From contig CM102289.1 in assembly GCA_046563655.1 (NCBI GenBank), positions 9,548,001 to 9,612,000 on the forward strand: a DNA stretch of 64,000 nt, read 5' to 3'. Below, piece after piece: positions 1-62,075 of this stretch. The notes under the pieces are model-generated. The model was not told the DNA's origin, did no database searches, and was given only the letters and a program-made list of their open reading frames with translations. Position numbers and translations under genes: made by a program. Origin of the DNA: Yuukianura sp. NJ FZ-2021. Its lineage: Eukaryota. Positions within the stretch are counted from its first letter, which is position 1; every line of letters starts with the position of its first letter.

Positions 1-2086
1 AAAAATTTCCTAAACTACTAAACTTTCAATTTTTTTTTTAAATTATTGAGGCAAAGTAACACTTTCAGCATCAAGTACCAATTGGATTTTTCTTGGCTTT
101 GTGCAATTTTGAAATTATTTTCTGTCAGGGTGTACAAAATTTTACCAAAAATTTGACAAATTGTTCTAAAAATTGAGTTTTTTTGAAGTTTAAAAATTGG
201 AAAAAAATTAGAAACAAGATCAGGTTCAGATTCTCGTTGGTCATTTTTAAAAACTTTCCAAAAAAAAATAAGACTTTTACCGTAATTACTAAATTTGCAA
301 GCCAAAAAACTTAAGCCGATTTTCCACGTGTGCTTTCTAATCAATCAGTTTGAGGAAGTAATTATATGAAGTTTAGGGAATTTTGAAAAGGCAGGTTAAC
401 AGACCAGTATGAGTACAGACAATGTTCGAGAAAGTTAAAAACAACAACAACAGGAATTTACCAACAACAACAACTCCTGTTGTGAAACTTTAAAAAAGAA
501 TTCGCACAAGTCCTTTTTAAAGGATCCATTCAATGCACAATTTATAGGCTTTAAGAGAAAGTGAAAAAGAGTTTGTCCTTGATTAGGGTTTTACCAATGT
601 CGTCCTTATAACTTTAACTTTAATTAGCCATTAAGTATCAATTGTCTTCGAAATTTTAGAATTCGGTTATTCACGAAAACTAAATTTCAAAATTTGGAAT
701 TGGCAAAGCCCTCTATAAATTTAGTGATAGTCTAAATCGTTAAGTGTTGTCCTAAAATGTCAAAACAATAACCACCCAGAACAGTTAAAATTTCAACTTT
801 AGTTTTAAGTTTTCACTTAGATGTTAAAATGCAAAACAGGGAAATATGAAATGGGTTAAAACGTCTTGAGTTTCGGTTGAAAGTATTAATTTTTTTTAAA
901 TGAGTTTTTTGTACTATTGGCAACTTTTTTTTAAAGAACTTTTTGTTCACACGGTACAAAACTGTGACATTACAATTGCCATTTTAAAGACTGAAAAACT
1001 CTACTGGAAATACAAAGTTTTTTGGGATTTTGTACAACTTTTGTATAAATCTAGTCTTAGAACTTGTATTGAAGGGAGGGTTATCCTAAAATGGCAATTT
1101 TCAAAAAAATTGAAAAATTTTAAGTTTTAAAAGCAACTTTCTCAGACGGTGAGTACAAAAATTGATTATCTCCCTGTTAACTTGCAACTACTTTGGGTTA
1201 ATTAGTTAAGTCAATTAAAAGTTAAGTGAGAAGTGGCGCTGTGAAGCTAGACACAAAGGAATACCTCCTAAGGTCTAAAGTTAACTAAAATTTAACTTTA
1301 ATTTAACTTTAATTTTCTCTTAATTTATAAGTTTTATTGTCTTTCACAACGAGGTTGAAGGGTGCATCTTTTTTCTTTTTCATAGAAAATCTAACGTTAT
1401 AGTGAGAATATTTTTTGAAAGTCGTTGCATTTTGGTGGTGACAGAGGCTGTGTGGGCAGGATCTCTAGTGTTTTAATTTTAATATATTTAAATATAATAT
1501 TTAAATATTAATTATAATTATTGTTGACCGCCTTGCAATAATTCCTGGGTCAACAATGCAGACTGACTGGACCTAATCACACACGTTCTCTGTCATCGTC
1601 ACAAATATTCTCCTTATAAATTAGCATACATACTAAAAATATCCACAAAAATATTCAACCAATCAGAAAACTCCGTTTTAGCCCTAAACCAATCGGAATC
1701 TCCTTTTTAAGTTTAAACTTTTAACCCTGTTAACTAACTATTAATTGTGATTTTAATAAGGTTATAATTAACTAAACTAAACCAAAAACACAATTGAGCA
1801 AAGGTCCACTGACTAAAGAGTTCTGATTGGTCAAAAAGTTTAAAGCTGGTTTCCTATTGGTTCACTGGATTGGCTAAATTTTATGAAAAACGAATTGTTA
1901 TGTAAATTAGGATTCTAAATATTCGGCAAACGTTTAGTGTTTAAAAAAATACGTTCTCAACATCCAACGAAAAAAAAAATATACAAAAAAAATTAATTGG
2001 CAGTTACCTAGGCTTAAAATTAGGCTTAATTTTGGCGGAATTGTACGAAAAGTTATTTGACATATCAGTGAGGAGAGTAGTAACTG

Positions 2087-6802: not shown

Positions 6803-9800
6803 CCCAAAGGGGTACCTTGTCGTGGGTACCCATTCCGCGGTAGCTTTAAGCGGTTAGCACTGTCTCCGCGGTTCTAAACTAAAAAAAACGAGTTTTTTTT
6901 TAGAAAAACCCAATGATGGCCACGCCCTTCAAAATAAAATTTTTTAATTTTTACACAAGGTACCCCAAAGGGGTACCTTGTCGTGGGTACCCATTCCGCG
7001 GTAGCTTTAAGCGGTTAGCACTGTCTCCGCGGTTCTAAACTCAAAAAAAAACAAGTTTTTTTTTGAGAAAAACCCAATGGTGGCCACGCACTTCAAAACA
7101 AAATTTTCTAATTTTTAAGAAAGGTACCCCAATGGGGTACCTTGACGTGGGTACCCATTCCGCGGTAGGTTTAAGCGGTTAGCACTGTCTCCGCGGTTGT
7201 AAACTCCAAAAAATAAAGTAATTTTTTGAGAAAAACCCAATGGTGGCCACGCCCTTCTAAAAAAAATTTTCAAATTTTTAACAAAGGTACCCCAATGGGG
7301 TACCTTGACGTGGGTACCCATTCCGCGGTAGGTTTAAGCGGTTAGCACTGTCTCCGCGGTTTTAAACTCAAAAAAAAAAACAAGTTTTTTTTTGAGAAAA
7401 ACCCAATGGTGGCCACGCACTTCAAAACAAAATTTTCTAATTTTTAAGAAAGGTACCCCAAAGGGGTACCTTGTCGTGGGTACCCATTCCGCGGTAGGTT
7501 TAAACGGGTGACAATTTCTCCGCGGTTATAAACTCCAAAAAAACATGATGTTTTTTGAGAAAAACCCAATGGTGGCCACGCCCTTCTAAAAAAAATTTTC
7601 AAATTTTTAACAAAGGTACCCCAATGGGGTACCTTGACGTGGGTACCCATTCCGCAGTAGGTTTAAGCGGTTAGCACTGTCTCCGCGGTTGTAAACTCCA
7701 AAAAAACAAGTAATTTTTTTAGGAAAACCCAATGGTGGCCACGCCCTTCAAAATAAAATTTTTTAATTTTTACACAAGGTACCCCAAAGGGGTACCTTGT
7801 CGTGGGTACCCATTCCGCGGTAGGTTTAAGCGGTTAACAATTTCTCCGCGGTTATAAACTCCAAAAAAACATGATGGTTTTTGAGAAAAACCAAGAACTG
7901 GCCACGCCCTTCAAAACAAAATTTTCAAATTTTTACACAAGGTACCCCAAAGGGGTACCTTGTCGTGGGTACCAATTCCGCGGTAGCTTTAAGCGGTTAG
8001 CACTGTCTCCGCGGTTCTAAACTAAAAAAAAACAAGTTTTTTTTTGAGAAAAACCCAATGATGGCCACGCCCTTCAAAATAAAATTTTTTAATTTTTACA
8101 CAAGGTACCCCAAAGGGGTACCTTGTCGTGGGTACCCATTCCGCGGTAGGTTTAAGCGGTTAACAATTTCTCCGCGGTTATAAACTCCAAAAAAACATGA
8201 TGGTTTTTGAGAAAAACCCAATGGTGGCCACGCCCTTCTAGACAAAATTTTCAAATTTTTAACAAAGGTACCCCAAAGGGGTACCTTGTCGTGGGTACCC
8301 ATTCCGCGGTAGCTTTAAGCGGTTAGCACTGTCTCCGCGGTTTTAAACTCAAAAAAAAAACAAGTTTTTTTTTGAGAAAAACCCAATGGTGGCCACGCAC
8401 TTCAAAACAAAATTTTCTAATTTTTAAGAAAGGTACCCCAAAGGGGTACCTTGTCGTGGGTACCCATTCCGCGGTAGGTTTAAACGGGTGACAATTTCTC
8501 CGCGGTTATAAACTCCAAAAAAACATGATGTTTTTTGAGAAAAACCCAATGGTGGCCACGCCCTTCTTGACAAAATTTTCAAATTTTTAACAAAGGTACC
8601 CCAATGGGGTACCTTGACGTGGGTACCCATTCCGCGGTAGGTTTAAGCGGTTAGCACTGTCTCCGCGGTTCTAAACTCAAAAAAAAACATGATGGTTTTT
8701 GAGAAAAACCAAGAACTGGCCACGCCCTTCAAAACAAAATTTTCAAATTTTTACACAAGGTACCCCAAAGGGGTACCTTGTCGTGGGTACCCATTCCGCG
8801 GTAGGTTTAAGCGGTTAACAATTTCTCCGCGGTTATAAACTCCAAAAAAACATGATGGTTTTTGAGAAAAACCAAGAACTGGCCACGCCCTTCAAAACAA
8901 AATTTTCAAATTTTTACACAAGGTACCCCAAAGGGGTACCTTGTCGTGGGTACCCATTCCGCGGTAGCTTTAAGCGGTTAGCACTGTCTCCGCGGTTCTA
9001 AACTAAAAAAAAACAAGTTTTTTTTTGAGAAAAACCCAATGATGGCCACGCCCTTCAAAATAAAATTTTTTAATTTTTACACAAGGTACCCCAAAGGGGT
9101 ACCTTGTCGTGGGTACCCATTCCGCGGTAGGTTTAAGCGGTTAACAATTTCTCCGCGGTTATAAACTCCAAAAAAACATGATGGTTTTTGAGAAAAACCC
9201 AATGGTGGCCACGCCCTTCTAGACAAAATTTTCAAATTTTTACACAAGGTACCCCAAAGGGGTACCTTGTCGTGGGTACCCATTCCGCGGTAGGTTTAAG
9301 CGGTTAACAATTTCTCCGCGGTTATAAACTCCAAAAAAACATGATGGTTTTTGAGAAAAACCCAATGGTGGCCACGCCCTTCTAGACAAAATTTTCAAAT
9401 TTTTAACAAAGGTACCCCAATGGGGTACCTTGACGTGGGTACCCATTCCGCGGTAGGTTTAAGCGGTTAGCACTGTCTCCGCGGTTCTAAACTCAAAAAA
9501 AAACAAGTTTTTTTTTGAGAAAAACCCAATGATGGCCACGCACTTCAAAACAAAATTTTCAAATTTTTACACAAGGTACCCCTTTGGGGTACCTTGTGTA
9601 AAAATTTGAAAATTTTGTTTTGAAGGGCGTGGCCAGTTCTTGGTTTTTCTCAAAAACCATCATGTTTTTTTTTGAGTTTAGAACCGCGGAGACAGTGCTA
9701 ACCGCTTAAACCTACCGCGGAATGGGTACCCACGTCAAGGTACCCCATTGGGGTACCTTTGTTAAAAATTTGAAAATTTTTTTTAGAAGGGCGTGGCCAC

Positions 9801-11773
9801 CATTGGGTTTTTCTCAAAAAACATCATGTTTTTTTGGAGTTTATAACCGCGGAGAAATTGTCACCCGTTTAAACCTACCGCGGAATGGGTACCCACGACA
9901 AGGTACCCCTTTGGGGTACCTTTCTTAAAAATTAGAAAATTTTGTTTTGAAGTGCGTGGCCACCATTGGGTTTTTCTCAAAAAATTACTTTATTTTTTGG
10001 AGTTTACAACCGCGGAGACAGTGCTAACCGCTTAAACCTACCGCGGAATGGGTACCCACGTCAAGGTACCCCATTGGGGTACCTTTGTTAAAAATTTGAA
10101 AATTTTGTCAAGAAGGGCGTGGCCACCATTGGGTTTTTCTCAAAAACATGTTTTTTTGGAGTTTACAACCGCGGATAAATTGTTAACCGCTTAAACCTAC
10201 CGCGGAATGGGTACCCACGTCAAGGTACCCCATTGGGGTACCTTTGTTAAAAATTTGAAAATTTTGTTTTGAAGTGCGTGGCCACCATTGGGTTTTTCTA
10301 AAAAAATTACTTGTTTTTTTGGAGTTTACAACCGCGGAGACAGTGCTAACCGCTTAAACCTACCGCGGAATGGGTACCCACGTCAAGGTACCCCATTGGG
10401 GTACCTTTGTTAAAAATTTGAAAATTTTGTCAAGAAGGGCGTGGCCACCATTGGGTTTTTCTCAAAAAATGTTTTTTTGGAGTTTACAACCGCGGAGAAA
10501 TTGTTAACCGCTTAAACCTACAGCGGAATGGGTACCACGACAAGGTACCCCTTTGGGGTACCTTGTGTAAAAATTAAAAAATTTTATTTTGAAGGGCGTG
10601 GCCAAGGTTTCTATAGCAACGAAATGCTTTAAGAGGTTTGGCAATAAGTCCTGTTTACAAAAAAATTCGCTCCAAACAATTTTTTACTCTGATTTTCCTC
10701 CAATCCCATTTGATTGCATATAAATCATTACCATAGGAAAGCTCGGTGAGCCAAGTTTTGCTAATTTTTAAACAAAATTTAAAACGCTTGAGTTATTGCC
10801 TAACCTATTGAAGAAAAAACTATTTTCTTGTTTACAAACCTTGGGCGTGGCCATCATTGGGTTTTTCTCAAAAAAAAACTTGTTTTCTTTGAGTTTAGAA
10901 CCGCGGAGACAGTGCTAACCGCTTAAAACTACCGCGGAATGGGTACCCACGACAAGGTACCCCTTTGGGGTACCTTGTGTAAAAATTTGAAAATTTTGTT
11001 TTGAAGGGCGTGGCCAGTTCTTGGTTTTTCTCAAAAACCATCATGTTTTTTTGGAGTTTATAACCGCGGAGAAAATGTTAACCGCTTAAACCTACCGCGG
11101 AATGGGTACCCACGACAAGGTACCCCTTTGGGGTACCTTGTGTAAAAATTGGAAAATTTTGTCTAGAAGGGCGTGGCCACCATTGGGTTTTTCTCAAAAA
11201 AAAACTTGTTTTTTTTTAGTTTAGAACCGCGGAGACAGTGCTAACCGCTTAAAGCTACCGCGGAATGGCTACCCACGACAAGGTACCCCTTTGGGGTACC
11301 TTTGTTAAAAATTTGAAAATTTTGTCTAGAAGGGCGTGGCCACCATTGGGTTTTTCTCAAAAACCATCATGTTTTTTTGGAGTTTATAACCGCGGAGAAA
11401 TTGTTAACCGCTTAAACTTACCGCGGAATGGGTACCCACGACAAGGTACCCCTTTGGGGTACCTTGTGTAAAAATTAAAAAATTTTATTTTGAAGGGCGT
11501 GGCCATCATTGTTTTTCTCAAAAAAAAACTTGTTTTTTTTTGAGTTTAGAACCGCGGAGACAGTGCTAACCGCTTAAACCTACCGCGGAATGGATACCCA
11601 CGACAAGGTACCCCTTTGGGGTACCTTTCTTAAAAATTAGAAAATTTTGTTTTGAAGTGCGTGGCCACCATTGGGTTTTTCTCAAAAAAAAACTTGTTTT
11701 TTTTTGAGTTTAGAACCGCGCAGACAGTGCTAACCGCTTAAAGCTACCGCGGAATGGGTACCCACGACAAGGT
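6803..11773. repeat. Satellite array, ~161-166 bp monomer; orientation inverts at ~9584
   Basis: About 29 tandem monomers, each with AAGGTACCCCaaaGGGGTACCTT, GGGTACCC and two CCGCGG; forward 6803-9582, reverse-complement 9586-11773. Confidence 0.97.
10603..10843. mobile_element. 241-bp MITE inserted in a satellite monomer
   Basis: TIR CAAGGTTT...AAACCTTG; 8-bp TSD GGCGTGGC at 10595-10602 and 10844-10851; removing it restores the monomer sequence gaagggcgtggccatcattgg. Confidence 0.85.
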
Positions 11774-11807
11774 AAGATAAGCGATAAACTATGGCACTAA
11801 ATTCCAG

Positions 11808-12239
11808 GTTGTGGAGAGAAGCAAAACGTTCCGAGCGGGGAGCCGGGACAGTCGAATCCGAACTTATTTTTATGGACGGATCGGTGGGCAAGTTCTGCAT
11901 CCACATTCGTTCCAAGTGAAACTTTCCGAAGTAATCTACAAAATCGGAAGTCCAGCTGTTCCATCATCTTGTCTCCCACTGGGCATGAAAGTGGACGAAT
12001 CCCGAACAAAGTTAGTCCCAGTAACACCGACGACTCAGCAGTTGCTGCATAAACTGCTCGCAATAAGTTTCGCTTCTGCTGCTGACGAAGACGTAATCCG
12101 GAAGAATGTTGCTGGTTACGTCTGTGTGACGGACATTGACGTGGAAAAGGGACGCATGACTGTTCTATCGCCGTCACCCGGACCACTCCCCAAGTTACTT
12201 CTTCTCCTTTCGGACATTCAGTTTATGGATTCCCAATAA
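11808..12239 (+). pseudogene. CLP1: Orphan 3' exon of CLP1 (polyribonucleotide 5'-OH kinase); no 5' exons in window
   Basis: ttccag|VVERSKTFRAGSRDSRIRTYFYG...IYKIGSPAVPSSCLPLGM...NVAGYVCVTDIDVEKGRMTVLSPSPGPLPK...DIQFMDSQ*; directly preceded by the satellite array. Confidence 0.8.
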
Positions 12240-12905: not shown

Positions 12906-14164
12906 ATGCTTGGTGTTGGCGGATTCCTTTTGAAACGGTGTACCGGTGTGGAAGCATTTTCCTTCCTGCAAAGTCAACGTAAGTAATTGGCGTCAATTTC
13001 ATACTTTAGTAGATTGCTTAAGCATTTAAACGTTTTTCTTGTGCCATTCCAGGGAACCTGACGTTACTCGGGAGGAGTGGAAGAGGAATTTCAGCAGCAA
13101 CCGTCTCTTTATTCAGTACCGGAGGAATCACAGGTCAAATGAATTTGGAATCAGCAAAGAAATTAGCAGCATTCCGCGCTGTTGATGACCATATCCTTGT
13201 TAGTTTCTAGAAAACAATGCTATTAATTAGTAACTGTCATCTTTTAGTTTTGCTATTTTCATTTCAGAACAACCAGGTCGTGGGAATCGGAAGCGGAAGT
13301 ACCGTCGTGTATGCTGTGGAGAGAATAGGTAAGCTATTTAGCTTTTAACTTGAACTGATTTAGTATGCAAGGTCATAATTTTTCTGATCTTCTTTCTTAG
13401 CTCAGCGCGTGAAGGCTGAAGGTTTGAAGTTGATTTGCATTCCGACATCGTTTCAAGCCAAAAATCTAATCATTGACAATGGACTAGTCTACTCTGATCT
13501 GGATGTTCACCCGCAGGTTCTTGTTACCTAATTTTTAAGATTTAAGTTTCAACCTTCGTTTCTAACACTGAAGAATTGAGTAAGAATTTTTAAACCAGAT
13601 CGACGTGACAATTGATGGGTGTGACGAGTGTGATGAGAAATTGAACCTGATTAAAGGCGGAGGTGGATGTCAACTTCAGGAGAAAATTGTAGCCTCTGCT
13701 TCCAAGAAGCTGATCATCATCGCTGATCACACGTAATGATTGCGATTAAAGCAAGTTGAGAGAAAATGTGACCACTTCTTGCACTGTTTTGATTTTGCAG
13801 AAAGAAATCTACTTACCTTGGGCAGACTTGGACAAAAGGCGTACCACTGGAAGTATCAATGATTGGATGGAAGGTTGTTCTTAAAAAGCTGGAAGAGCTT
13901 GGAAAAGAACTAAACGTCCGCACGGAACCGCAGATCCGCCATGCAGCTAAGAAAATGGGACCAGTGGTTACTGATGGCGGGAACTTCATCGTGGATTTCC
14001 ATATTGGAAATGTCTTTGAGTCACAAAATGTACATTCACCCAAATCCCTTGACGCAGCACTCCGAGACATCCCGGGGATACTTGAGACTGGACTGTTCAT
14101 TGGAATGGCGGAACAGGTTTACTTTGGACATGACGACGGAACAGTCTCCACTAGACTTAAGTAA
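12906..14164 (+). CDS. RPIA: Ribose-5-phosphate isomerase A, multi-exon; in-frame upstream ATG 12906, core ATG 13139
   Basis: Motifs [72 protein letters not shown]. Confidence 0.95.
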
Positions 14165-14341: not shown

Positions 14342-14806
14342 TTAAGATTCAGGATTTTGGATAACAATCATGGCGTAGTCCTTGTCTGCAAGCAAAAAAA
14401 TACTTAAAACTTGTTCCTACTTTTCAGTAATCGTTTCTGTGAGTGCTAAATTGTACCTGGAGCTACCAATACTTCGTGTTTCTTTGTTCTGAGCCGAATA
14501 AATGAGAGATCATTGGTGTTGTCCATCTCCTTGATCATAGCACGAGCCTTTTCAATGATCAACTGCATCTCACAGGCATACTGAATGCTGACATTGTTCT
14601 CAATGGTGGACTTGATTGGAATACCATCTGAGTTGATAATTACTACACCAACTACGCCCTTATGATTTGATAGCCGTTTGATATACTCGTCAATTTCGTT
14701 TGCCTAAATCAAAATAGGTAGATAGAACAAGAAATTTCAGAATTCATTTCAAAATTTTGGTTCTGGTAATTTTTTCACATTGATTTTAGATTCTATGACT
14801 CACCAT
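14342..14806 (-). CDS. DYNLRB: Dynein light chain roadblock-type, 3 exons
   Basis: ATG|gtgag; ANEIDEYIKRLSNHKGVVGVVIINSDGIPIKSTIE...DNTNDLSFIRLRTKKHEVLVAP|DKDYAMIVIQNPES*; absent from the ORF track. Confidence 0.92.
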
Positions 14807-15222: not shown

Positions 15223-18200
15223 TTACTTTTGTAATTTATCCCCTTCTTTAGCAATTTTGATTTCATGATGAACAGAATCCTTAGTAGATGCTGCAGTACG
15301 TTCTGAAAACGTTTCAGAATTGCCAAAGTGAAAAATGTCAGCAGATTGTGTACCGTCTGGTCGACCTTGTTCAACAGTTTTGTAAAATTCAGTTGACTTT
15401 GGCCTATCTACTCCAGATTCTGCTGTGGTTGACTCCAAATGTTTCGAGTAGTGACCGAATTCAAATGCCTCTGATTTTTCCCGGTCATAACTTTTCCAAG
15501 ACCGTTCTTCACGAAAAGTCTCTTTGTTATAAAATTTTCCAACCTGAGGTGAATCGGTACGAGCGCGAATGAATTGAATCGGCGTGGTGGTGACAGAAAC
15601 GTATTTGGTAGGTGATACGGATCGTCGTACTTGCAGTTCTTCGTCATGCTCAACTGGACTTTCTATTGGACGAAGATAGAACTTGCATTCTTCCGTTTTA
15701 GTCATAGTTGTCGTCAGTTGTTTGTGTTTTTGAAGTGTATCGGATATCGGTTCGGCCACTTTGAAATTCATTTGGTCTGTCGTGATTTTTTCAGGTTCGG
15801 CCGTCTTCCGAATCGGTTTTGGAGGCGGAACCGGTTTCTGGGCAATCGGTTTTGCAATTGGTTTAGGTGGTGGCACGGGTTTCTGAAAACGGAAATTCAA
15901 AATTTCATAAAATTTCAAAATCGCTTTTTAAATTTCAAAATACTGAACCTCTAAGTTTGTCGACTTTGGTCGTGGTTCGTCCCAAGTTTTGGCGGTAAAA
16001 GTGGTCGGGCGGAATTCATACGCCGACATTGGACGGTTTTGTCTCGAACTTGGTGGAATCCAAATCGGTTCGATTTTGAACGACTCATAATCTGATTCAT
16101 AGTCGGATTCAGTAAATTTGGCGGGAACAAATTTCGTTGGACGCCGGATTCCCGCTGCATTGTTTGAATTTGAAGCAGCACTTTCTGGACGTGAATCTAA
16201 AAATGCTGGGCATACTGGAGATATTACTGGAGAGTCCACGCCATGACAGGAAACATGCTCAGAGTAGTTCGTCTGGAAATTTCTACTGACTGAATCGTAT
16301 TTTGAAGTTTCACGAACCGAACTGATTCGATACGCCGGTCCGGCTGGAGAAACCGGAGTGTCGTCAGGGTTACCTTCAAAAAGTTGACGAAAATGACCAA
16401 CCTTCCCTCTGGCGGGAAATTCCACTTGGATTGGCACAGTTCTTGGTGAGTGCGGCTGAATTTGAGTTTCCCGCTCTTCTTTTGTCTCAGTTTCAAACAT
16501 TTTCCGGTAGTCCTTGACTTTTTTCCGGGGAAATGTTTCATAACTTCGGTTTTTGGCACTAATTTCATTTGTTTCCTCGGGAAAATCAACTCTAGTTGTC
16601 ACTGTTTCTTCGAAGTTGTCAAAAAATCGTTTCGTTGTGGTCACAACGGATTTCGGACTTTTGAGTTCGGCCGGAATTCGGTTTGAACTGTCTTCAGTTG
16701 GTTTGACCTTGACTTCTCTCCATTCATTGGATAAACGGCGTCGAGGAGGAGGAGCTTGTTTTTGATTGGTCGGAGTAGCACTCTCTATGTTGATTTGACT
16801 GTTTAACGCGTTCACCAACTCCAATACAGATGGACGTCTGTCTTCAGATACTTTATCCTGAAAAAAAATTGTAAATTTTTAGAAATTTTTGAAAAGTAAT
16901 AAATTTTTAGAAGTTTTTGAAATTCTAAAGTTAGTTTAAATTGGACCAACATTCTGAAATTTGTTGTCTGGTTCTTGCACATTCGACTGAGTCGAAAAGT
17001 TGCGTAGAAGTTGCGGTGATGCTTCGTGCGTTTGCGTGATGCTGTCAAATTGCAATTTCGGTTCCTGGTTCGTTCCTGTCGTTTCGTAAGTCGTTTCAGA
17101 CTCTTTGCAAGTTAAAATTCGTTTTTTGGAAATGAGTTCCGGTGATTCAGATTTAACAGAAGTTTGAGTTTCAGAAGTCAAAAGTAATTTCGCAGGGCTT
17201 TCTGGTCTCAAGTTTCCAAGGTCACCGGCAGCATTGACCTCCGAAGTTTTGGGCATGTCACTTTGAACAGATTTCTCCGAAACTTCAACTTCATGTTCAG
17301 GAAGTGTTGGCGTCTGCGTTTGAATTGTGGAGAGTAGTTTTGCAGGTTGTTGCATCACTAGAACAATTGGTTCTGGAGATTTTTCAGTCAGCGTCTGTGT
17401 TTCAGAGTTGGCAATGATCTTGGCATCTCTCTCGGACGTTTGTGTTTGCATTGTGGACTGCTCAAAGATTGTTTGCACTTCGTGGTCTGAAACGGCCGAA
17501 AAATAATCAGCGATTGGTTCAGCGAAAGCGAAATTATTCGGGTTTTGAGAAACAGAATGTTCACGTCGCTGATTTTCTTGAGTCGGCGCATTGCCGTTGG
17601 GCGGCAAAAGTACTTCTTGCCTAATTACTTCTGTAATTGTTGTTGATTCTATCAAAAAAAAATCACAAATTATTGAATTACAAATTACATAATTGCAATA
17701 TGAATTACATACGAATTGTTTATACTATGATATGTTATATTATTAGTATATTATATATTATATTTTAATATTTATATATTTATATAGCAATATTACGGAA
17801 AATGTTGCGTTCCAACTCCATAATTTCGCGAATGTACAGAATCCGATCCGGTTTTTGAATTAATTCATAAAATTGGAGGCATTGCAGAATTTTGTTTTTC
17901 TTTTCGTACATTTTCTCGATGAGTTCCAGCGGCGGATTATCCATTTCCTGTAATAAGTAAAAAAAAATTTTTTTTTTGAATTTCAAAAATTTTTTGATTT
18001 TTTAGCTTTTTTCATATTCATACTTCTACTATTGCTTCAAATTTTTGAAAATCCCGCAAATCACTTCGAGCGGTATCCAGGTTTTCCGGAAGCGGGAAAT
18101 CCAAAGTTTTGAATAAATGTTCCAAATGCTCCTCTCTCAATTTTTGAGCTTCCAGTGCTTCCCTTTCCGCTGCTTTTCGTTTTTCTTCAGCGTCAAATCG

Positions 18201-21200
18201 CTGTTGAGCTTCAAGGTCAAGTTGGATTTGAATTTCACGGTGACGCTGCAGTTCCAGCGCCTGCCTTCGCTGTTCTTCCAGCGCTTGTTGCTTTTGCTCT
18301 TCTGTTTTTCGCTGATTTTCTAACTCAGTTTGACGTTGCTTTTCAACTTCAATCTTTTGACGTTCAAAATCAAGTGCTTTTTGACGTTCAAAATCAAGTT
18401 GTTCCAGCTCATGTCGCTTCTGCTCCAGCTCCAGCTCCAATTGCTGTTCAAGCACTTTGTTTTGACGTTCACGATCTAAGTTAGCTTGACGAAGTTGACG
18501 TAGACGTTCGTTCTCTACGTCAATTTCAAGTTGACGCAAAAGCTCAGCCTCACGAAGACGTTGACGTTCGAGGTCTTCCAATTGCCGTTTTTGCTCAGCT
18601 TCGGCCCTTTGACGCTCCAATTCTTCCAATTGACGTTGCCGTTCATCGTTGATTCGTCGCTGATTCTCTTCAAGTTGACGCATGCGCTCTTCTTCTGCGG
18701 CTTTTTGCCTTGCTACTTCTTCCAATTGACGTAGCCGCTCCTGTTCAACTTTTTGACGTTCTAGTTCAAGTTCATGACGTATTCGCTCCGCTTCGGCTTT
18801 TTGTTTCTGCAGGGCGTCAAGTTGACGTTGACGGTCGGCCTCTAATTGCCGCTCGTGCGTTTCCAGTTGACGTTGTCGCTCGTCATCTTCTTTTTGTCGC
18901 TGAAGTTCTAGGAGTTTGCGCTGTTGCGTCAATTCTTGCTTTTGACGTTGAAGTTCCTCTTGGATAAGTTGACGTTGTGCTTCTTCCAGTACAAGTTGTT
19001 GCTGAAGTTGCTGCTCGAGCTGCTGTTGGTGAAATTCGGCTTCGGCTCGTCGCTGCTCAAGTTCCATTTCGGCTTGACGTCGTTTTTCCTCTATTTCGGA
19101 TTGTTGACGTCTTAGTTCCTCTTCGGCTTGTTGACGGTTTTGCTCAATTTCGGCCTGTTGACGCCTCAACTGGTCTTCAGCTTGTTGAAGTATCAGCTGA
19201 GCTTGGGCTTGTTGACGCATCAATTCTGCTTCGGCTTGTTGACGTATTCGTTCTGCTTCGGCTTGTTGACGTTCAAGATCAGCTTGTTGACGTCTAAGTT
19301 CAGCCTCTTGACGTAAACGATCTGCTTCAGCTTCTTGACGTAAACGTTCTGCTTCATCTTGTTGACGTTTAACTTCTGCTTCAGTTTGGAGACGTAACTG
19401 TTCAGCTTCAGCTTGTTGACGTCTCACTTCTGCCTCAACTTGTTGACGTATTTGTTCTGCTTCAGCTTGTTGACGTCTAAATTCCTCTTCACTCCGCAAT
19501 TCTTCCAGCTTTTCCTGTTTTTCGTTTTCCGCGTTGATTTGTTCTTCCAAACGAGTTTGAGGAGGGCCGCTGTGCAATCCATACGATTCTTCAACCAGAA
19601 TTTGTTCCTCAAGTTCATTCAAATTTTCAGTTTCCCGCTCTTGTAATTGAACTTCCAATTTGGCAGGTTCATTGCCCTCGTTCAGGTCACTGTCTCTTGC
19701 TGTTTGACGCAAACGAAGCAACTTGTTGTGAGCTTCTCTCGTGTCCAATGTAGGGTCCTACAAAATCAAAACATAAATATAAGTCTGGTATTACTTAATA
19801 AAAAGTAATAAAAATGACCGATAATTATTAGATGCTAATTAATGGGTTACTTTTAAGATTTAAAAAAAGCACGATTTTGGTCTGAAACCCTCTAAAATGT
19901 TGTTAATTCTTCATTTATAAAAAATTTTGTTTTTGTCCAACACCACCAAACCTTCCAATTTTCTACAGAAGGACTTTTGGAAAAAGTCAGGATTAGGCTA
20001 ACAAATTCACTACAGTGCATTTTCCTTTTTTATGGAAATTTAAAAAATTCCAAAATATTGTTTTTCTGAAACACCATCACACCTTCTAACTTTCTACAGA
20101 AGGACTTTTGGATAAAGTCAGGATTAGGCTAACAAATTCACTACAGTGCATTTTCCTTTTTTATGGAAATTTAAAAAATTCCAAAATATTGTTTTTCTGA
20201 AACACCATCACACCTTCTAACTTTCTACAGAAGGACTTTTGGAAAAAGTCAGGATTAGGCTAACAAATTCACTAAAGTGTATTTTCCTTTTATATGAAAA
20301 TTTAAAAAATTCCAAGATATTGTTTTTCTGAAACACCATCACACCTTCTAACCTTCTACAGGAGGACTTTTAGAAAAAGTCAGCATGTCGAAAAAAATTG
20401 CTAAAGAAAACTTGTGAAGGATGGAGGGGCCAGAGCGAAGGCCCAATACGGACGCTTAGTATGCTGTTAATTCCAACAAAGTAAACATCAAGAACAAAAA
20501 TGTGAGTACCCAATTGCAGATAGTTTCGATGTGGCCCTCACTGAACGCAGTTGGATTTTCCACCATGGCGTCAAATTTCTTTTGAATTTCGTATCTCGTT
20601 GCGACAGTTTCCCTTAAAGGATTCGGAACTTCAGCACGGCAGCAAAGATCTGAAGAAAGCACAGCAGCATAGGAATTTTCAAATCCAGGAGCATCCAGGA
20701 CGTTGTTGGCGCTCAAAAATTTTGCAACGGCTTCAGCTCGATTCAAAAGTTCACTAAAATGTTGACATTTTGCACTCAGAGTGGCTCTTTTTGGAAGTTC
20801 TTCATCTTTGTCAAAGTTTTGCAAAACGTCTTCAATGTTCTTAATCTTTTCTTTCAGAATCTACCCAAAAAACGAAAATTAGAAAAACGCTTTTGTTTCC
20901 AAATTTTGTATTTCACTAACCAAAATTTCTGATTCTTTTGCTGCAGACGATCCCAGACTCGTGTATCGGACTTCCACATCTTTCATTTCATCCTCAAAAT
21001 ACTCAAACAGCGATTTCAGTGAACCGGTTTTTGCAGCGCGAATTTGAGCTAGCGCTGAAGCAATGTCCAGACCAGGATCCTGTGTACAAAAAGCAGAAAT
21101 TTTTGAAAAAAATTACTGGAAATGTTGAACTGAGTTCAAAGTTTTTGTTTTCTTGCCAAATTGAGTAATTTTTCAATGGCTTCGTCTTCATAATCGAACG

Positions 21201-22797: not shown

Positions 22798-24250
22798 TAC
22801 AACTATCACAGAAGCCTAAAACTTTTCAAAACAACTTTTCAAAATTTGGAATGAAGTGCAAAACTGTGCACTTACGACCTACATTTTTCAGTTTCTATTA
22901 GTAGTGATGTTCTAATGGGAAAATAGAAAGCGTCATCACTTTACACAATTTGGAAAAAGACCTCAAGATTCCTTTCGTTAAAAATACAAAACCGTAGGCG
23001 GTCCGAGACACAGCGACGCTCAACTCAAACTGAAACTAAAATTCTTGGAATTTGGTTTACTTTTTCTCAACGCTTAAAGCGTCTTTTAGCATTACCAGAC
23101 TGGTAATGGTGCTAACACAATTGGAAAAGACTAAAAATCGACTAAAAGATCATCTCCCATCGGTATATTGGTGTGAACCAGATGTGCAATTTCGAGGTTG
23201 TCTAAAAATAGTACTTTTTTTTTTTAAAAAAATAGTCTACTTTTCAGAATCTTGAAGGTAACAAAAGTACTATAAGCCAAACACTTTCAAGGATTGACTG
23301 GACCAGAGATGCTGGGCGGTCGTCTACTTTAAAAAAAATGAAATTTTGAAAAAAAAAGTGTTTAGTAAACATTGTCCCTGTGTAACATTAGCTAGTTTTA
23401 AAAGTGAAAAATTTGGAAAGTGGAAATGAGGCAAGACGCGTGGTTGCAGGATGAAGCAATTTAAAAAAAAAGTTTTATTTTTTTTAAAAAAAGTGTTTAT
23501 GTTTAGAACAAGGTTTGAAATGAACGACTGAGGGTTTCTATTCATAACAAACACGTAAATCACTGCTACTGTTTGCATTTGGAAAAGTAATTGATTGGCG
23601 GTAAAATGGAACAACCAGCAAACTATCGACGGATGAACGCTTCCTTCTGGACTGGAGCCAAATTTCAAAATTTAAAACCAGAAAAATCTATCATCTTTAA
23701 CCCAAATAGCACACAACAATTTTTACTTTTGTTTTTTTTCCAAAGGACGCTGCGTCGATGTTTTGTTTCTTCGTGTACGAAAGAAACTGTTTATTGAAAA
23801 CCCGTAAAAAATTCATATTTACAGTAACGTTTTACGGATTTTTACAATAAAGGCGGCGATTTTAAAACTGATGCAAAGTATGCAAATCTTTGAGTAATCT
23901 GTGTGTTTTTTTTTTGCATTTGTCGTCATTTTTATAGATGTGTTTACTTAACCAACTTTTGAGCATAAAGTGCGTTCCAGTGAAGAAGTAATTAGTTTTT
24001 GCATAAGTTTTGCAAAAACCAGGTTGTAGACAACAACCTATACTATCCTTACAATTTGTAGTATAGTTAGGTTTGTAGAAGTTTTTTTTTTCGCTAGTTC
24101 TGTCGTCAGTTCACCTTGGAAGGTGACACAGAACTGTTACTGAAACAAAAACTGCTGTTTGGCGTTATCGTTTTAGTTGAGCTGACACAATTTCGCAATG
24201 TCAGAGGTCGTTGACCTTGAAAAATTACTTTAACCGTATGGGTGCCACTG

Positions 24251-24510
24251 GTGTCACAATTTGTGACACACGTCGGAGTAGTGCCAAATTTTTGAAAGAA
24301 ATTGTGACGTAGAAGGTGGGGGATTTTATATGTCACGGGAAATATTTTTGGCTGCACAAACGGACCCCAAACAACACCCTACACGCCTCCATATGCAGAG
24401 GCGGATTTTTTAAAATAAAAGCGTCAAAATTTTGCCATACATTCCCCTGTGTCACAATTTGTGACACCCAGGGTCAACACGCGTTGTCAGCTGTGTCACA
24501 ATTTGTGACA
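24251..24510. promoter_or_regulatory. Three copies of the palindrome GTGTCACAATTTGTGACAC upstream of the H3-like gene
   Basis: Copies at 24251-24269, 24449-24467 and 24493-24510; regulatory role is inferred only. Confidence 0.5.
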
Positions 24511-24740
24511 ACTTTTTTTATGAAGACTAGCCTATGGTACTTTTTGTGCCTCGACTAGTAGCACCGACCGTGACAAAACCGATGGTAGCCGTACGGTTAA
24601 AAGGTAACGCAATAAAATAATATAGCTAACTTATTCATAATTATTGAGTTGTGCTCAATGGAGTTATGCATAAGGTACAGAAAGTTCTGGTGATGCGAAC
24701 CATTTTTTTTTGTTCTTTTTATTTACAGTAAACTGTAGAA

Positions 24741-26259
24741 ATGAAACGACGCTCGCGCAGAACTTCCACAACTGCCTGGACCATTGTCACTGAAAATCCT
24801 CGCAAGCGACAACGCAAAGATGACAACGAGCAGCATAGGGCCAATAAGAGGCGTCGCAAATGCCTGGAGTGCGTTTGCAACTCACGTCGAGGTCAGATCT
24901 TGACCACGTCCACTCCAACACCAGCACATCTAGACGGAAACTCATCAGTAGTTCGTGACTCGTCACCTCATGTCAACATGTCAGTGTCACGCATTGCACC
25001 GTCCGGAGATGAAGGTGGACACCTTCACTTGACACCTCCAACCACCGACTCATCCCAGGAAATAGTAGTTCCGCCAACACCGTCCTTTGAGAAGAAACGG
25101 ATTGTCTACGTAAGGTACACGTAAACTCAAAACTAAAATTACACAAGTTACATAACTTACATAAACTCTTGGATTTTTCATGTCAGGAGAGTCGAGACTA
25201 AGAAGAGGGGAAATGCTAAAGTCAAAACTTCGTCAAAGGGGAACCCGGACAATCCAGACGCTGGAACGCGCAGGACTGACACTCCCATTCCAAGTCCTGG
25301 CATGCATGACTCCGATACTCCTACTCATGACCCCGACATTCCTAACACTGATACTCCTATTCCTGCACCGGACATTCCTAACACTGATGATACTCCTATT
25401 CCTGCATCGGACATTCCTATCACTGATGCGCCTATGCCTGACCGGGTCACTGTTGCCGATGACACTCCAATTCCTGACCCAAACACTGTTGCCACTGTCA
25501 CTTCAATCACTGACCCGAACACTGTAGCCATTGTTACTCCAATTACTGACCCGAACACTGTTGCCGCCCCAATTCCTGACTCAAACACTTTTGCCGCTCC
25601 AATTCCTGACCCAAACACTGTTGCCGCTAACACTCTACTTCTTGATCCGAACACTGTTGCCACTGTCACTCCGATTCCTAACCCTGACACTGTTGCCGTT
25701 CACACTCCAATTCCTGATCCGAACACTGTTGCCACTCCAATTCCTGACCCAAACACTGTTGCCACTCCGATTCCAAACCCTAACACTGTTGCCATTCAAA
25801 CTCCAATTCCTGATGCAAACACTCTTGTGTCTGCTGCAACGTCAACTTCCAAAAAACGTTCCCGGATATTCTCTTCTATCACTCTAACGCCGACCTTAGA
25901 AATTCCGGTGATGGAAGTGAAGCGATTGGTAATGGAGGTGCTGGCTCAAGTCAATCCGCAGCTTAGAATTCAGTTTGGAGCTATTATGGCACTACATGTA
26001 AGTTAATTGTAAACCATCTCACTGTAAAAACCAAAAAAAAACATTTCCAAATTTTTTTCAAAATTTTCAGGAACTTTGTGAGGAGCACATCACTTTGTGG
26101 TTTTCGGACCTTAACCTTTGCTCACAACATGCTGACCGCTCCACTGTCACGGAGACTGACGTTCTTTTGCGGAAAAATTTAATCCAAGGCGGTAAAAACC
26201 CGTACGCCACTCGTCGCAGTGACCCTGACGACACCGAAAATGACGACTACTACTACTAG
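24741..26259 (+). CDS. Divergent histone H3-fold protein with very long N-terminal tail (~457 aa; exons 24741-25114, 25187-25997, 26071-26259)
   Basis: GT-AG introns with matching phases give one open frame ending LEIPVMEVKRLVMEVLAQVNPQLRIQFGAIMALH|ELCEEHITLWFSDLNLCSQHADRSTVTETDVLLRKNLIQG, which aligns without gaps to H3 [73 protein letters not shown]. Confidence 0.85.
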
Positions 26260-26849
26260 GTCACTACATGCTAACGCTAACTCTTGTGTAAAGTAGATCA
26301 TGCTGTCATCCTGTTAAAAAAACGACGAATTTCGCATGAATGCTACAAAAAATTAGATTTTTCTTTTTTAAGTTTTGTCAACCTTCCGTACTAGAAGTTA
26401 GAACTTTGTTAAATCAAGAGACATGAATTAAAAAGTAGTTTTTGTAAAATATGCTTGTTTTGAAGTCCCTGTAAACTACTGATTTTATTGGTAAATTTTA
26501 TACTCCAGATTACATTTAAAGCAAAAATTGAAATTACCGGTAGATGACAACTTAGTAATTTCAAATTCAGTTTTTTAGTTTAGAGCAATGATAGTTAGGC
26601 AAACACCGATTTGTGATGATGATGTAAATTACAACTGTGAAGACATTTTACAAATTTTGGAAATAGCAGCACACACTTTTGGTAGCATTTTGCTATAATT
26701 ACCTCTCACACTTTCAAGTTTTAAATTATAATGATCCCAGTATAATTTTATAATTTTTTTTTATAATATCAGCCAAACTAAAATTTAACAATGAGCAAAT
26801 GCACCAAACCACGTCGGCCTTTTGGAGTCAAAGGGCGTGTACTATTAAT

Positions 26850-27037
26850 TCCCAGCAAAAATTTGCAGTTTCCAGCAAAAACATCAAGTTTCCAGCAAAA
26901 ACTTCAGGGTTCCAGCAAAATATTGGAAGCCAATTGCGATTGTCAAAGCTTAGCCGAGCAATATTTTAGCTTTCAATACTGCGACAGTATGTGCTGAAAC
27001 AGTACATGCTGCCGCAGTATATACTGCAACAGTACAC
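26850..27037. repeat. Two short minisatellites (~20-bp TTCCAGCAAAA unit x4; ~16-bp CTGNNNCAGTA unit x4)
   Basis: Visible at 26850-26925 and 26975-27037. Confidence 0.7.
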
Positions 27038-27263
27038 GTCCTTTGAACCTCCACCAGCACAAAAAAAGAGAAAAGGAACCGAGGAATGTCATAATACCAA
27101 AGAAACTTAGTATAATAGGGACCAAATTATTTCTTAAACATGGTAAACTGGAAACAAAATTTAAATTGTCCAGATGAGAAACTGTTTACCTCTCTTGTAT
27201 TGGAATCAGAATCAGCACAGTCCAGCATTCATACCACACCGTGGAATAATTAACTCTTGTTCA

Positions 27264-29077
27264 TTACTGATCCTCATCGCCTAGGTTGTGCTTTACTTTA
27301 GAAAAATCAAACTCCTCTCCAGTCCCGCGCTTGAAAATGTCCAGTACATCCAAACAGGTTGTTTCAAAGTGAGTGGTTGCATCATAAGATTCAGAAATGA
27401 ATATTTGAGAGTCAATTCCAGAATCCATGGGTTCATAGTAGTCAGACACACTGATAAACCTGTACAAATTAACATAAATCATTACATTAATTATCAATTT
27501 AAGTAAAGGTGTTTCAGTTGTTAATTACTTTTGCTTGATTGGACCAAGAAGGGCTAAGCCTGGCTGAATTTCTTGCTCGGGGTTGGCCGTTTCCACAGTC
27601 GTAGAGACCATACCGACAAACCACCCTTTCGCAGCGACTTGATGAGTGTTGCTCACCATTGACACATAGATATCTAAAAAATAAGAAATGTTGAAATACT
27701 TGCGAAATACTTGTCCAGCACATGCTGATTCAGGATATCATACCTGATTTGCGATTAACTTGCTTTTGAGGAATAATGATCTGAGTGGAAAGTGCATCCT
27801 TGGTGTTTGGAATAGGATGATCCAAGAGACAAATACAACGGACGACTTGTCCAACCTTCTTCACACGGTTAGGAAGGTAAGATGGATCGCAGTACACCTA
27901 AGTAATTATACATTTTCATTACAAAAACGTCAACAACAAAATTGCCCACAACAAAAATGTCAACAGAAAGTGAATGTTGGTGAAACCCAGACTAGCTTAG
28001 CAGTTTTGGACTGTGACTGTACCTGTTTGCATTTTGCAACTTCATCGCCAGATTTCACTCCAACTACTTTGCCATTGTCGTCCAACACGATTTCATCAAC
28101 TTGTTTGTCCAGCATGTACGTCCCGCCATAAATTGCGCTCAATCTGAATTCAAATAATTGCAATTTACTTTAAAAAAAAGTGACAAAAATGACAAAATTA
28201 CTGCAAAAGTGACGTTTGGATACTTACCTTGCAAATCCTTGAGGAAGTTCTCCCAATCCGTACATTGGATACAAGTAAGGACTCTTTCCATATCGAGCCA
28301 GTGAGTCCGAGTAGAGTCGAATTCTTCTGATTGTCTCCAGTGCTGGTTTCCGAATGTAGTCATCGTCTCGCATCAACGCCAGAGCATGCCCAGTGAAATC
28401 TTGAGTGTTGGCATCCAATCCAAACTTCTCATAAAGTTGCAACACAGTTTGGGTCCTGGGATCAAAATCCTTCCATGTCTTCGGATCGTCTTCCTTGAAC
28501 TCAGCGACGTAGCTCAAAAAGTTCTTGAACCGACGTTTCTCGAAAAGTCCCATCAATTCTAATTAAAAAAAAACAGCCATTAACGTAACCATAGTGCCAA
28601 GTATAACCACCAACGTCATTTGTACTCACCAGAGGTAAGTGCCTCTCGCTCATCAGCTGGAACTTTAGCGATTTTCCCTCCCTTGTAGACATAACTGCCC
28701 TCGACGGACTTGAATTCCAAGTAGCGCGTAACTCCAGTGTGAATGAGCAATTTGACAAGCTGCCCATTAGCCATTAGAAACTTCGGAATCAGATCCACGT
28801 TCCAGTCTCTTCCACGGCCATACATTTGCTCATCGGGCTTCGGGTAATCGAATTTACTAAAAAGATCTTCCAGTGGAGTCATGGATGCAGTTTCTCCGCC
28901 GTAGTACTTGTTTCGATCAATATGCAGAACCTTCTTTCCAGAAACAGACAGCATACCGCTCAGGATACATTCCTAAAGTAACATATTACAACAGTTTAGT
29001 AATTGAATACATTTGACTATGTTCATGAATACCTTCAGTCCAGTTCCAAGAACAATTGCGTCGTATGATTCATCCAT
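27264..29077 (-). CDS. GDI: Rab GDP dissociation inhibitor, multi-exon
   Basis: [103 protein letters not shown]. Confidence 0.97.
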
Positions 29078-31106: not shown

Positions 31107-31197
31107 TCGTGTTCCACATGGTTTGCACTACAACAGGTGCCGGGAATTTCAAAAATCACCAGAGCACCTGATGAAGTACAATTGACAATGGACACGG
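31107..31197 (-). ncRNA. mir-305: pre-miR-305
   Basis: Minus strand 31182-31160 reads AUUGUACUUCAUCAGGUGCUCUG (mature miR-305-5p); pairing arm CGGCACCUGUUGUAGUGCAAAC at ~31142-31121. Confidence 0.95.
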
Positions 31198-57630: not shown

Positions 57631-58118
57631 CGCTTCACGCCTGAAACACATAGATCACGTTAATAATACCATAACTTTAACTGAACACAACAATATTAAT
57701 ACTACTGCGGAACTGCTGTAAATAAACCGTAATCAACTGTACATCAATGTACGTAAACCTTACACAAACCGTACATAAACTGTATACACATACTTCTCAT
57801 TGCTAAACGTAAAGGTCACAGGTCGGCTGGTGACACTTACCAAGTGGAGAGGTGGATGAACGTTTCGTCAATGCTTATCTTGCCGGGTTGTCATAAACAA
57901 CTTAGCTTTTGCTATAAATCTGTCACCCGAATTCCTTAACCTAAAGTAAATCGAAAAGTTATGTTAACAAATCTCCATTTTTGTGTTATTTTGTTTACAA
58001 ATATCCTCTTTTACCTTCTCTTCGTATGCGGAGATGCGAATGTGAATGTACGGAAGCGTAAAAGGGCCAACTCGCTTCCCGATTACCTCCTCCATAAGCA
58101 ATACATTGGAGTTGAACT

Positions 58119-58500
58119 GCGCGGTTCCCAGTACTCGGTTCCCGGTTCCCAGTACTCGGTGCGCGGTTCCCAGTACCCGGTGCGCGGTTCCCAGTACTCG
58201 ATTCCCAGTTCCCAGTACTCGATTCCCGGTTCCCAGTACCCGGTGCGCGGTTCCCAGTACTCGATTCCCGGTTCCCAGTACCCGGTGCGCAGTTCCCAGT
58301 ACCCGGTGCGCGGTTCCCAGTACTCGATTCCCAGTTCCCAGTACTCGATTCCCGGTTCCCAGTACTCACTGCGCGGTTCCCAGTACCCGGTGCGCGGTTC
58401 CCAGTACTCGGTACCCGCTTCCCAGTACTCAGTGCGCGGTTCCCAGTTGTCGCTGCGCGGTTCCCAGTTGTGCTGCGCGGTTCCCAGTTCTCGCTTCCCA
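58119..58500 (+). repeat. 21-bp minisatellite (GCGCGGTTCCCAGTACTCGGT-type), left arm
   Basis: About 18 tandem units visible. Confidence 0.95.
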
Positions 58501-58904
58501 GTTGATCAGCTGATTTTGAAATTTTAAGATCAATTATTTACCAAATCAATAAACATACAGCAAATTTGAGAATAACAGTTATACATATATTTAATACGGA
58601 AGTTTCGGTATCATCGACTAATCGTCGACTAATAGTGCAACCAAGAAATAACCCCATGTCTCTCCTGCTATTTCTTTTCAATCTATCATTTTGTTTTCCG
58701 TAGTCTAGTATTTTTGTATACCTTTTATTTTTAAATCCCACCATTTGTATTTCAGGTTAGGACATTTTTGTATTTAGTTTAATTCTTTGATAACACTTTA
58801 GATTTTCACTAGCTGAATATAACTACCACCCTAGACATAATTTACTTTTCTTTAGTTAAAAGACTCCATGTTTACTTTCAACGCTTAATTGCGCGGCCTA
58901 TACA

Positions 58905-61775: not shown

Positions 61776-62032
61776 GGAACTCCTTCGGGAAACTCGCGAA
61801 GTTCGTTTAATTGAGATAAAAATCTCAATTAACTCAGTTTTTTACGCTGATTACGAATCTGTAATTAGTTTTGGCCGCTCACTACCCTAACTTAACCTAA
61901 CCTAACTTTAACTAAAATGTGCCCCCATGTATGAGATAGGGAGAAGTGTGATGCCCAGAGCTGTTGCTCTGAGTGAAGGTGCAATTCCCTATCTCTCCCA
62001 TAGAACCTTCGCGAGTTTGCCGAAGATAAGCC
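61776..62032. mobile_element. 257-bp MITE nested in the right arm
   Basis: TSD GATTTGGT at 61768-75 and 62033-40; imperfect TIR GGAACTCCTTCGGGAAACTCGCGAAG / CTTCGCGAGTTTGCCGAAGATAAGCC; the left arm shows the empty site (single ACCAAATC). Confidence 0.9.
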
Positions 62033-62075
62033 GATTTGGTAATGTGATTTTAAAATTTCAAAATCAGCTGATCAA

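Follow-up and report, generated by a model that had tools for sequence, protein, structure and literature searches.

A far-diverged, long-tailed histone H3-type gene in Yuukianura sp. and its possible likeness to centromeric H3 variants

Centromeric H3 variants (CenH3) change faster than any other histones, and when an animal protein carries a strongly diverged H3 fold behind a long tail of its own, it is usually a CenH3. Here, a gene of this build is described from Yuukianura sp. NJ FZ-2021 (assembly GCA_046563655.1, contig CM102289.1, positions 9,548,001-9,612,000 of the forward strand). This stretch of 64,000 nucleotides is called the window, all coordinates are positions within it, and the gene occupies 24741-26259 on the plus strand. 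Judged from its sequence, it is an intact, intron-bearing gene of the variant type that descends from H3 and has diverged very far from it. A centromeric function of the encoded protein is plausible.

In insects, CenH3 has been repeatedly lost and repeatedly duplicated, according to the accessible text of sources that include PMC4359364. The in-silico criteria for CenH3, as given in the accessible parts of PMC4359364 and PMC7598501, combine a divergent tail with a lengthened loop 1 and the absence of Q69, F85, and T108 (numbering that includes the initiator Met). The third position is printed as 118 in PMC4359364, and the T108 wording is that of PMC7598501. The Tribolium cCENH3, as described in the available text of PMC7598501, is 51% identical to H3 and is encoded by an intronless 378-bp gene (about 125 amino acids). 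CENP-T of insects (Lepidoptera) and chicken is described in the accessible part of 10.1101/836262 as bearing positive charge at the N-terminus, with a patch of prolines ahead of the fold and, following the fold, a 2-helix extension. Among the 10 listed of 1,762 literature matches, none is a paper on CenH3 in the springtail lineage, which is a weak negative.

The H3 fold and the gene that encodes it

Three predicted exons join in frame through two GT..AG introns to give 1374 nucleotides, encoding 457 amino acids and a stop, as proposed in an earlier note on this DNA. The gene and the two halves of its histone fold are laid out as follows (slashes mark splice points).

24741-25114 (+): exon 1, residues 1-124 and two bases of codon 125; lies in the stop-to-stop open reading frame (ORF) 24732-25124 and is frame-compatible with exon 2
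25115-25186 (+): intron 1, 72 nucleotides, AAG/GTACAC...TGTCAG/G, with the weak donor GTACAC
25187-25997 (+): exon 2, residues 125-395, a Ser/Pro/Lys linker, acidic Pro/Thr/Asp repeats, SKKRSR, and the first half of the fold
25899-25997 (+): first fold half, residues 363-395, α1, loop 1, and the start of α2, matching H3 61-93
25998-26070 (+): intron 2, 73 nucleotides, CAT/GTAAGT...TTTTCAG/G, phase 0, between the equivalents of H3 Q93 and E94
26071-26259 (+): exon 3, the second half of the fold, an acidic tail, and the TAG stop
26071-26184 (+): second fold half, residues 396-433, the remainder of α2, loop 2, and α3, with NLC..HA.R.T....D..L kept

The joined protein of 457 residues was used in the phmmer and profile comparisons, and single-exon pieces were used in the Pfam, PDB, AlphaFold2, and database searches. 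For the H3 reference, 23 loci with an H3 signature were taken from a viral-contig collection and 16 full-length H3 ORFs were kept. The animal H3.1 row used for residue comparisons is a segment cut from the protein P0005, as is the H4 segment 20-102 used below.

Against the 16 H3 ORFs, residues 363/364-431 align without a gap to H3 62/63-130 (Met counted) at 26-37 bits, and the profile built from the 16 sequences matches the joined protein at 37.2 bits (E 1.5e-13 at Z=1). When residues 340-457 were shuffled, 849 of 1000 versions scored at all, with a maximum of 4.7 bits. Taken by itself, the exon 2 piece covers profile positions 61-94 and is matched as far as its final residue (13.0 bits, E 4.5e-6 at Z=1), and exon 3 by itself covers positions 98-130 (14.3 bits, E 1.8e-6). 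Because the separate pieces match adjoining halves of the H3 profile and meet at the intron, the splice between exons 2 and 3 is supported; its splice sites are textbook. At E ≤ 10, a PDB search with exon 3 returned 157 matches, of which the top 60 are all H3 chains (E 0.002-0.036), while the exon 2 fold piece alone gave no PDB match at E ≤ 10 and no Pfam match. H4 scores 0.8 bits. In the database proteins P0004 and P0006, fused mispredictions that also contain H2A and H4 segments, the H3 parts alone were matched. From the gap-free H3 match, the shuffle control, the adjoining exon halves, the H3 chains of the PDB search, and the low H4 score, we conclude that the fold is by sequence derived from H3 and not from another histone-fold family. 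The gap-free H3 fold reported earlier is thus borne out, and the grouping with a non-H3 family that had been named as the contrary outcome is not seen in these comparisons.

A kinetochore histone-fold protein of the CENP-T/CENP-S kind, not related to H3, is the rival that the Pfam scores bring in. On exon 3 alone, CENP-S (PF15630) ranks first with 23.4 bits (E 8.2e-5), followed by Histone (PF00125) with 18.2 and CENP-T_C with 16.3. The protein atlas places exon 3 among generic histone-fold neighbours only (best 0.87), and a CENP-T/TAF cluster stands among them at 0.86. The order of Arg-rich head, Pro-rich middle, and C-terminal fold is also that of CENP-T as far as the accessible text of 10.1101/836262 describes it. 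This rival is nonetheless highly unlikely. All three Pfam matches lie under their cut-offs (CENP-S 28, Histone 26.4, CENP-T_C 28.1), so that exon 3 falls outside CENP-S by that measure, and H3 matches the entire fold at 37 bits with no gap, the H3-specific motifs NLC..HA.R.T and RLV.E included. The 24 residues past α3 are non-helical-looking and leave no space for a 2-helix extension. The likeness to CENP-T is therefore one of architecture, drawn by comparison with its description: a basic Arg-rich head, a Pro-rich stretch, and a C-terminal histone fold are shared, whereas the fold is H3-like by sequence, the extension is absent, and the CENP-T_C score is 16.3 against a cut-off of 28.1. Of the CENP-T-like long-tail architecture suggested earlier, the layout stands and the fold and extension do not.

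Identity to animal H3.1 is 25/69 (36%) over positions 63-131. The α1-L1-α2-L2-α3 register of H3 is kept without a gap, most buried hydrophobic positions are retained, and it is surface residues that have changed. Residues kept are R69, L70, V71, E73, L82, R83, Q85, A88, M90-L92, E94, C96, E97, F104, D106, N108-C110, H113, A114, R116, T118, D123, and L126. Among these, C110, H113, D123, and L126, retained along with the buried core, are residues that we take, from nucleosome structures, to form the H3:H3' four-helix bundle. The changes include R63P, K64V, Q68K, R72M, F84I, T107L, K115D, and K122T, of which R63, K64, R72, K115, and K122 are presumably DNA contacts, again from nucleosome structures. 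The fold (363-433) has 6 Lys and Arg against 10 Asp and Glu, with an isoelectric point (pI) of 5.2. Nothing N-terminal of about H3 residue 60 can be aligned by phmmer or in the alignments, neither the αN helix nor the ARTKQTARKS tail, and loop 1 has no gap relative to H3 and is not lengthened. The H3.1 alignment agrees with the residues called earlier: R69, R83, C110, H113, R116, D123, and L126 as kept, the ARTKQTARKS tail, R63, K64, and R72 as lost, Q68, F84, and T107 as substituted, and a loop 1 of unchanged length.

The gene does not have the form of a canonical histone gene. No match to the histone 3' stem-loop (RF00032) reaches the gathering score anywhere in the window, and the interval 26200-27300, which covers 1.1 kb past the stop, has none at E ≤ 10 either. 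Since it has two introns and lacks the stem-loop, the gene is of the variant type and not a replication-dependent canonical one. Introns of 72 and 73 nucleotides are normal locally, because those of the isovaleryl-CoA dehydrogenase gene in the window measure about 58-84 nucleotides; the donors of that gene are varied (GTAAAG, GTAAGC, GTATGT, GTTCGT, and others).

H3.3 resembles the window gene in being an intron-bearing member of the H3 family. It differs in being near-identical to canonical H3 and in keeping ARTKQTARKS, whereas the window fold has 25/69 identity and an unrelated tail; by near-identity to canonical H3, the window gene falls outside H3.3. An intron of H3.3 genes presumably lies at the equivalent of Q93/E94, as the earlier note has it; the literature search found no published H3.3 intron position. 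One unrelated H3 gene in the viral-contig collection (locus L014, intron near 1359-1445) has a short GC-rich intron at Q93/E94 (...ALQ/GT...CAG/EAA), the same site as intron 2 of the window gene.

The start ATG at 24741 is the first past an in-frame TAA at 24729, and exon 1 has an open frame of 130 codons that ends at a phase-compatible GT. A better-looking rival donor, GTAAGG (25110), lies 5 bases 5' of the one used, and it shifts the frame to a stop after 4 codons of exon 2. Twelve bases 5' of the ATG, a pyrimidine run ending in CAG (24716-24728) resembles a 3' splice site. A foldback or inverted-repeat element (24229-24601, arms of 43 and 24 nucleotides) lies 140 bp 5' of the ATG. The 17-bp palindrome TGTCACAATTTGTGACA has three exact copies, at 24252, 24450, and 24494, and none elsewhere in the window; three matches occurred in 0 of 100 shuffles. 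The element could be an insertion resembling a miniature inverted-repeat transposable element, or a cluster of binding sites. The gene may have an intron in its 5' untranslated region, possibly enclosing this element.

The long tail, H4 pairing, and relatives

The regions outside the fold include the following.

24741-24908 (+): basic head, residues 1-56, with KRRSRR, RKRQRK, and KRRRK-CLECVC; pI 11.7
25314-25827 (+): tandem repeats found by Tandem Repeats Finder (TRF), in arrays 25314-25445 and 25448-25827; periods of 30-39 nucleotides and a higher-order unit of 168 nucleotides
26185-26259 (+): C-terminal tail, residues 434-457, QGGKNPYATRRSDPDDTENDDYYY; acidic, pI 4.2, ending in YYY, followed by the TAG stop

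Residues 57-150 are rich in Ser, Pro, and Val, and residues 151-340 are acidic (pI 4.1) with 22% Pro, 18% Thr, and 13% Asp. By eye, the repeat arrays encode about 16 units of a decapeptide resembling TPIPDPNTVA. Just N-terminal of the fold is a short run of basic residues, SKKRSR, and the C-terminal end of the protein reads ...DPDDTENDDYYY. The pI of the whole protein is 5.8. The basic clusters, Pro/Thr/Asp repeats, and acidic tail noted earlier are all present in the joined protein, the repeats being confirmed by TRF. Pfam has no family for exon 1 at E ≤ 10 and none for exon 2. The AlphaFold2 model of exon 2 alone, made from a single sequence, has a mean predicted local distance difference test score (pLDDT) of 45.4; its residues 1-237 are below 50 and lack secondary structure, and helices appear at exon-2 residues 241-255 and 257-269, which are residues 366-380 and 382-394 of the protein. 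The other single-exon model is likewise poor, with a mean pLDDT of 48.5.

The fold would pair with H4 in a histone handshake and would be able to form an H3-type tetramer. The 362 residues N-terminal of it would make a mostly unfolded platform. Its basic head resembles a nuclear-localisation signal, its roughly 16 Thr-Pro-rich acidic decapeptides may be sites of proline-directed phosphorylation or of docking, and it would end in the short basic stretch beside the fold.

A three-chain model of the exon 2 piece, the exon 3 piece, and H4 20-102 scored 0.41, 0.41, and 0.42, with 0.03 for the highest of 3 controls. Its runs share at least 92% of contacts, the partner pLDDT is at least 65, and the tool grades the result as 'weak support'. 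In calibration, 51 of 78 solved complexes passed the same mark, as did 2 of 108 mismatched pairs; passes with a score of 0.60 or less were few among the solved complexes (5 of the 78), and they include every one of the 4 mismatches that passed among 180. Since H3-H4 is already a solved pair, the model may have remembered it, and a three-chain job is unlike the calibration. The structure prediction with H4 that had been suggested earlier thus gives a pass (0.41 against 0.03), but one with a weak grade, split chains, and possible memory behind it.

No relative of exon 2 was found at E ≤ 0.01 among 7151 candidates of 148-473 amino acids from an index of 5.8 billion proteins. An exhaustive search of 1.84 billion representatives with exon 3 found 6 proteins at E ≤ 0.001. 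Five of the 6 were examined and rejected as orthologues, two being repeat proteins and three being fused multi-copy H3 mispredictions; the sixth, P0003, which lies outside those 5, has 3829 amino acids and matches in 5 stretches. With a query of 62 residues, this search needs about 41 bits, and fast-evolving orthologues could escape it. For exon 3, none of 11 candidates in the 'longer' length class was a relative at E ≤ 10, nor were any of 368 pattern matches in metagenome contigs or 30 in viral contigs. Among the 272 ORFs of at least 60 amino acids in the window, with the 12 that overlap the locus excluded, no other histone gene was found at E ≤ 0.001.

The extreme divergence (25/69) and the lack of a homologue in the collections searched would follow if the gene were a copy of an H3-type gene, possibly of H3.3 in view of the presumed intron site, that has no function or is not expressed and is drifting while still unbroken. 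A three-exon model that is wrong at its 5' end belongs to the same explanation, and the weak exon 1 donor, the competing out-of-frame donor, and the foldback repeat 140 bp 5' of the ATG would fit it. We consider this explanation unlikely. The frame is open for 457 codons across three exons with correct phases and introns of local size, and the 130-codon frame of exon 1 ends at a phase-compatible GT. The buried core and the presumed four-helix-bundle residues are kept and the surface has changed. Among ten core repeat units, the ratio of nonsynonymous to synonymous differences (pN/pS) is 0.39, a value from non-independent pairs that points weakly to coding constraint. The open frame and this ratio are also what speak for an intact gene.

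Comparison with centromeric H3 variants

A centromere-type H3 variant that works like CenH3 or Drosophila Cid, whether as the CenH3 of the species itself or as a paralogue with a specialised role, is a tentative reading to which we give somewhat less than an even chance. It is the most likely single function because a strongly diverged H3 fold behind a long tail of unique sequence is usually encoded by a gene of the CenH3 kind. The window protein shares with CenH3, CENP-A, and Cid a C-terminal H3-type fold, a long unalignable N-terminal tail, the loss of Q68, F84, and T107, and a gene of the variant type. It differs from them in having no lengthened loop 1, no recognisable αN, an acidic fold, 36% identity, and 457 amino acids.

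Measured by the in-silico criteria, the protein has a divergent tail on an H3-like fold, and it has K, I, and L in place of Q69, F85, and T108; T118, the position printed in PMC4359364, is kept. The third criterion is a longer loop 1, which was looked for and is absent, and for this reason the protein is not filed as a member of the CenH3 family. A CenH3-like ORF (925-1575, minus strand) was seen in L005, a contig binned as a giant virus; it may be viral or a eukaryotic contaminant. Like the window protein, it has a diverged H3 fold behind an unrelated N-terminal tail. Its loop 1 is one residue longer, it has A/W/A at 68/84/107, it keeps αN, and it is otherwise near H3, whereas the window protein has no longer loop 1 and is much more diverged.

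The gene's neighbourhood offers a further comparison, through one exon upstream.

11781-12239 (+): Clp1 exon

The Drosophila gene cbc is presumably the Clp1 orthologue. In the published account, as far as its available text goes, cbc and bbc are the neighbours of Drosophila Cid1. The Clp1 exon stands 12.5 kb upstream of the H3 variant and recalls the Drosophila order cbc-Cid1-bbc, a weak hint of synteny with Cid1.

Several observations weigh against a CenH3-like role. Loop 1 has the length seen in H3, and in the same alignment L005 shows the one-residue insertion usual for CenH3. Both the fold (pI 5.2) and the whole protein (pI 5.8) are acidic, the αN helix cannot be aligned, and R63, K64, R72, K115, and K122 have become P, V, M, D, and T. 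The fold is identical to H3.1 at 25/69 positions, compared with 51% for the Tribolium CenH3 (PMC7598501, accessible text). Several genes lie between Clp1 and the H3 variant, no bbc-like family occurs among the 272 ORFs, and mosquito Cid genes are placed elsewhere according to the part of the literature account that is available. No homologue was found in any collection searched. The joint of exons 1 and 2, with its weak donor, is the less certain part of the gene model, as it is set by frame logic alone.

Some of these features would suit a lineage-specific H3-derived protein with a non-centromeric role. Its place may be in the chromatin of sperm or germline, or it may act outside nucleosomes, as an adaptor that binds H4 or works through its histone fold and no longer wraps DNA. 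The fold is acidic and has lost five basic residues at the presumed DNA-contact positions, it has neither αN helix nor loop-1 insertion, and it has no relatives in the searched collections, as for a young or fast-evolving orphan. We regard this as possible, though doubtful. In known animal genomes, the combination of a strongly diverged H3 fold and a long unique tail belongs as a rule to CenH3, a view with which the criteria in the accessible parts of PMC4359364 and PMC7598501 agree. The losses of Q68, F84, and T107 fit CenH3, though they may be due to chance at 36% identity, and no positive sign of a germline role was seen.

A bolder reading is an H3 gene that has been rebuilt, so that an acidic fold would grip H4 or itself on a CENP-T-like platform, made up of the basic head and the roughly 16 acidic Thr-Pro repeats, and would not wrap DNA. 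The product would be a kinetochore or centromere adaptor, or else the only CenH3 of a basal hexapod lineage, in extremely derived form; we think this quite unlikely. The earlier note had offered an unusual CenH3 or a new lineage-specific H3 variant. The tail and the residue losses fit an unusual CenH3, and a lineage-specific H3 variant fits the lack of a relative in the collections searched; CenH3 is not established, since loop 1 is not lengthened.

Genomic setting and significance

The locus is gene-dense euchromatin with housekeeping neighbours, which besides the Clp1 exon include the following.

13793-14161 (+): ribose-5-phosphate isomerase, upstream
14449-14703 (-): roadblock/LC7 (robl-like) gene, upstream
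27267-28972 (-): Rab GDI gene, downstream and tail-to-tail with the H3 variant

The interval from the robl-like gene to the H3 variant holds four consecutive long frames of 234, 316, 262, and 579 amino acids (15226-19757, minus strand), which have no Pfam family at E ≤ 1 and are probably one large orphan gene. Clp1 and the isovaleryl-CoA dehydrogenase gene have between them a 163-bp tandem satellite at 6803-10604 (about 3.8 kb), with 17.1 copies and, from about 9572, 6.4 more that are apparently in reverse orientation; both arrays have 88% matches. This satellite is the reason for the many ORFs of 60-72 amino acids in 6803-10604. The stretches 57940-58537 and 61912-62571 are open in several frames on both strands and have sub-threshold, zero-stretch Pfam matches (LbR_Ice_bind, Zn_ribbon_NOB1); they are probably low-complexity repeats.

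Some neighbours bear on the identity of the organism. A mir-305 precursor (31115-31190, minus strand) scores 71 bits, where 66 is the gathering score, and mir-305 is, from its distribution, presumably an arthropod marker. The Clp1 exon scores 142.9 bits to the human protein and 87.6 to that of C. elegans. The exons of isovaleryl-CoA dehydrogenase are 78.0% identical to Folsomia candida, 80.7% to a Joint Genome Institute (JGI) protein, and about 71-74% to insects; the protein atlas gave no taxonomy for the dehydrogenase exon. We read these results as those of an arthropod, probably a hexapod that is perhaps springtail-like. A nematode, to which the TTTTCAG acceptors had seemed to point, is rejected on the Clp1, dehydrogenase, and mir-305 results.

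What the H3 variant means depends on which reading is true. If the gene is unexpressed, it is merely a drifting duplicate. If it is a CenH3, its 362-residue repeat tail, its acidic fold, and its lack of a loop-1 insertion and of αN would stretch the in-silico definition of CenH3; the alternative is a new class of H3-derived protein. If the H3 gene has been rebuilt, a descendant of H3 would have converged on the design of CENP-T. Either functional reading would provide a concrete gene to test in a springtail-like lineage.

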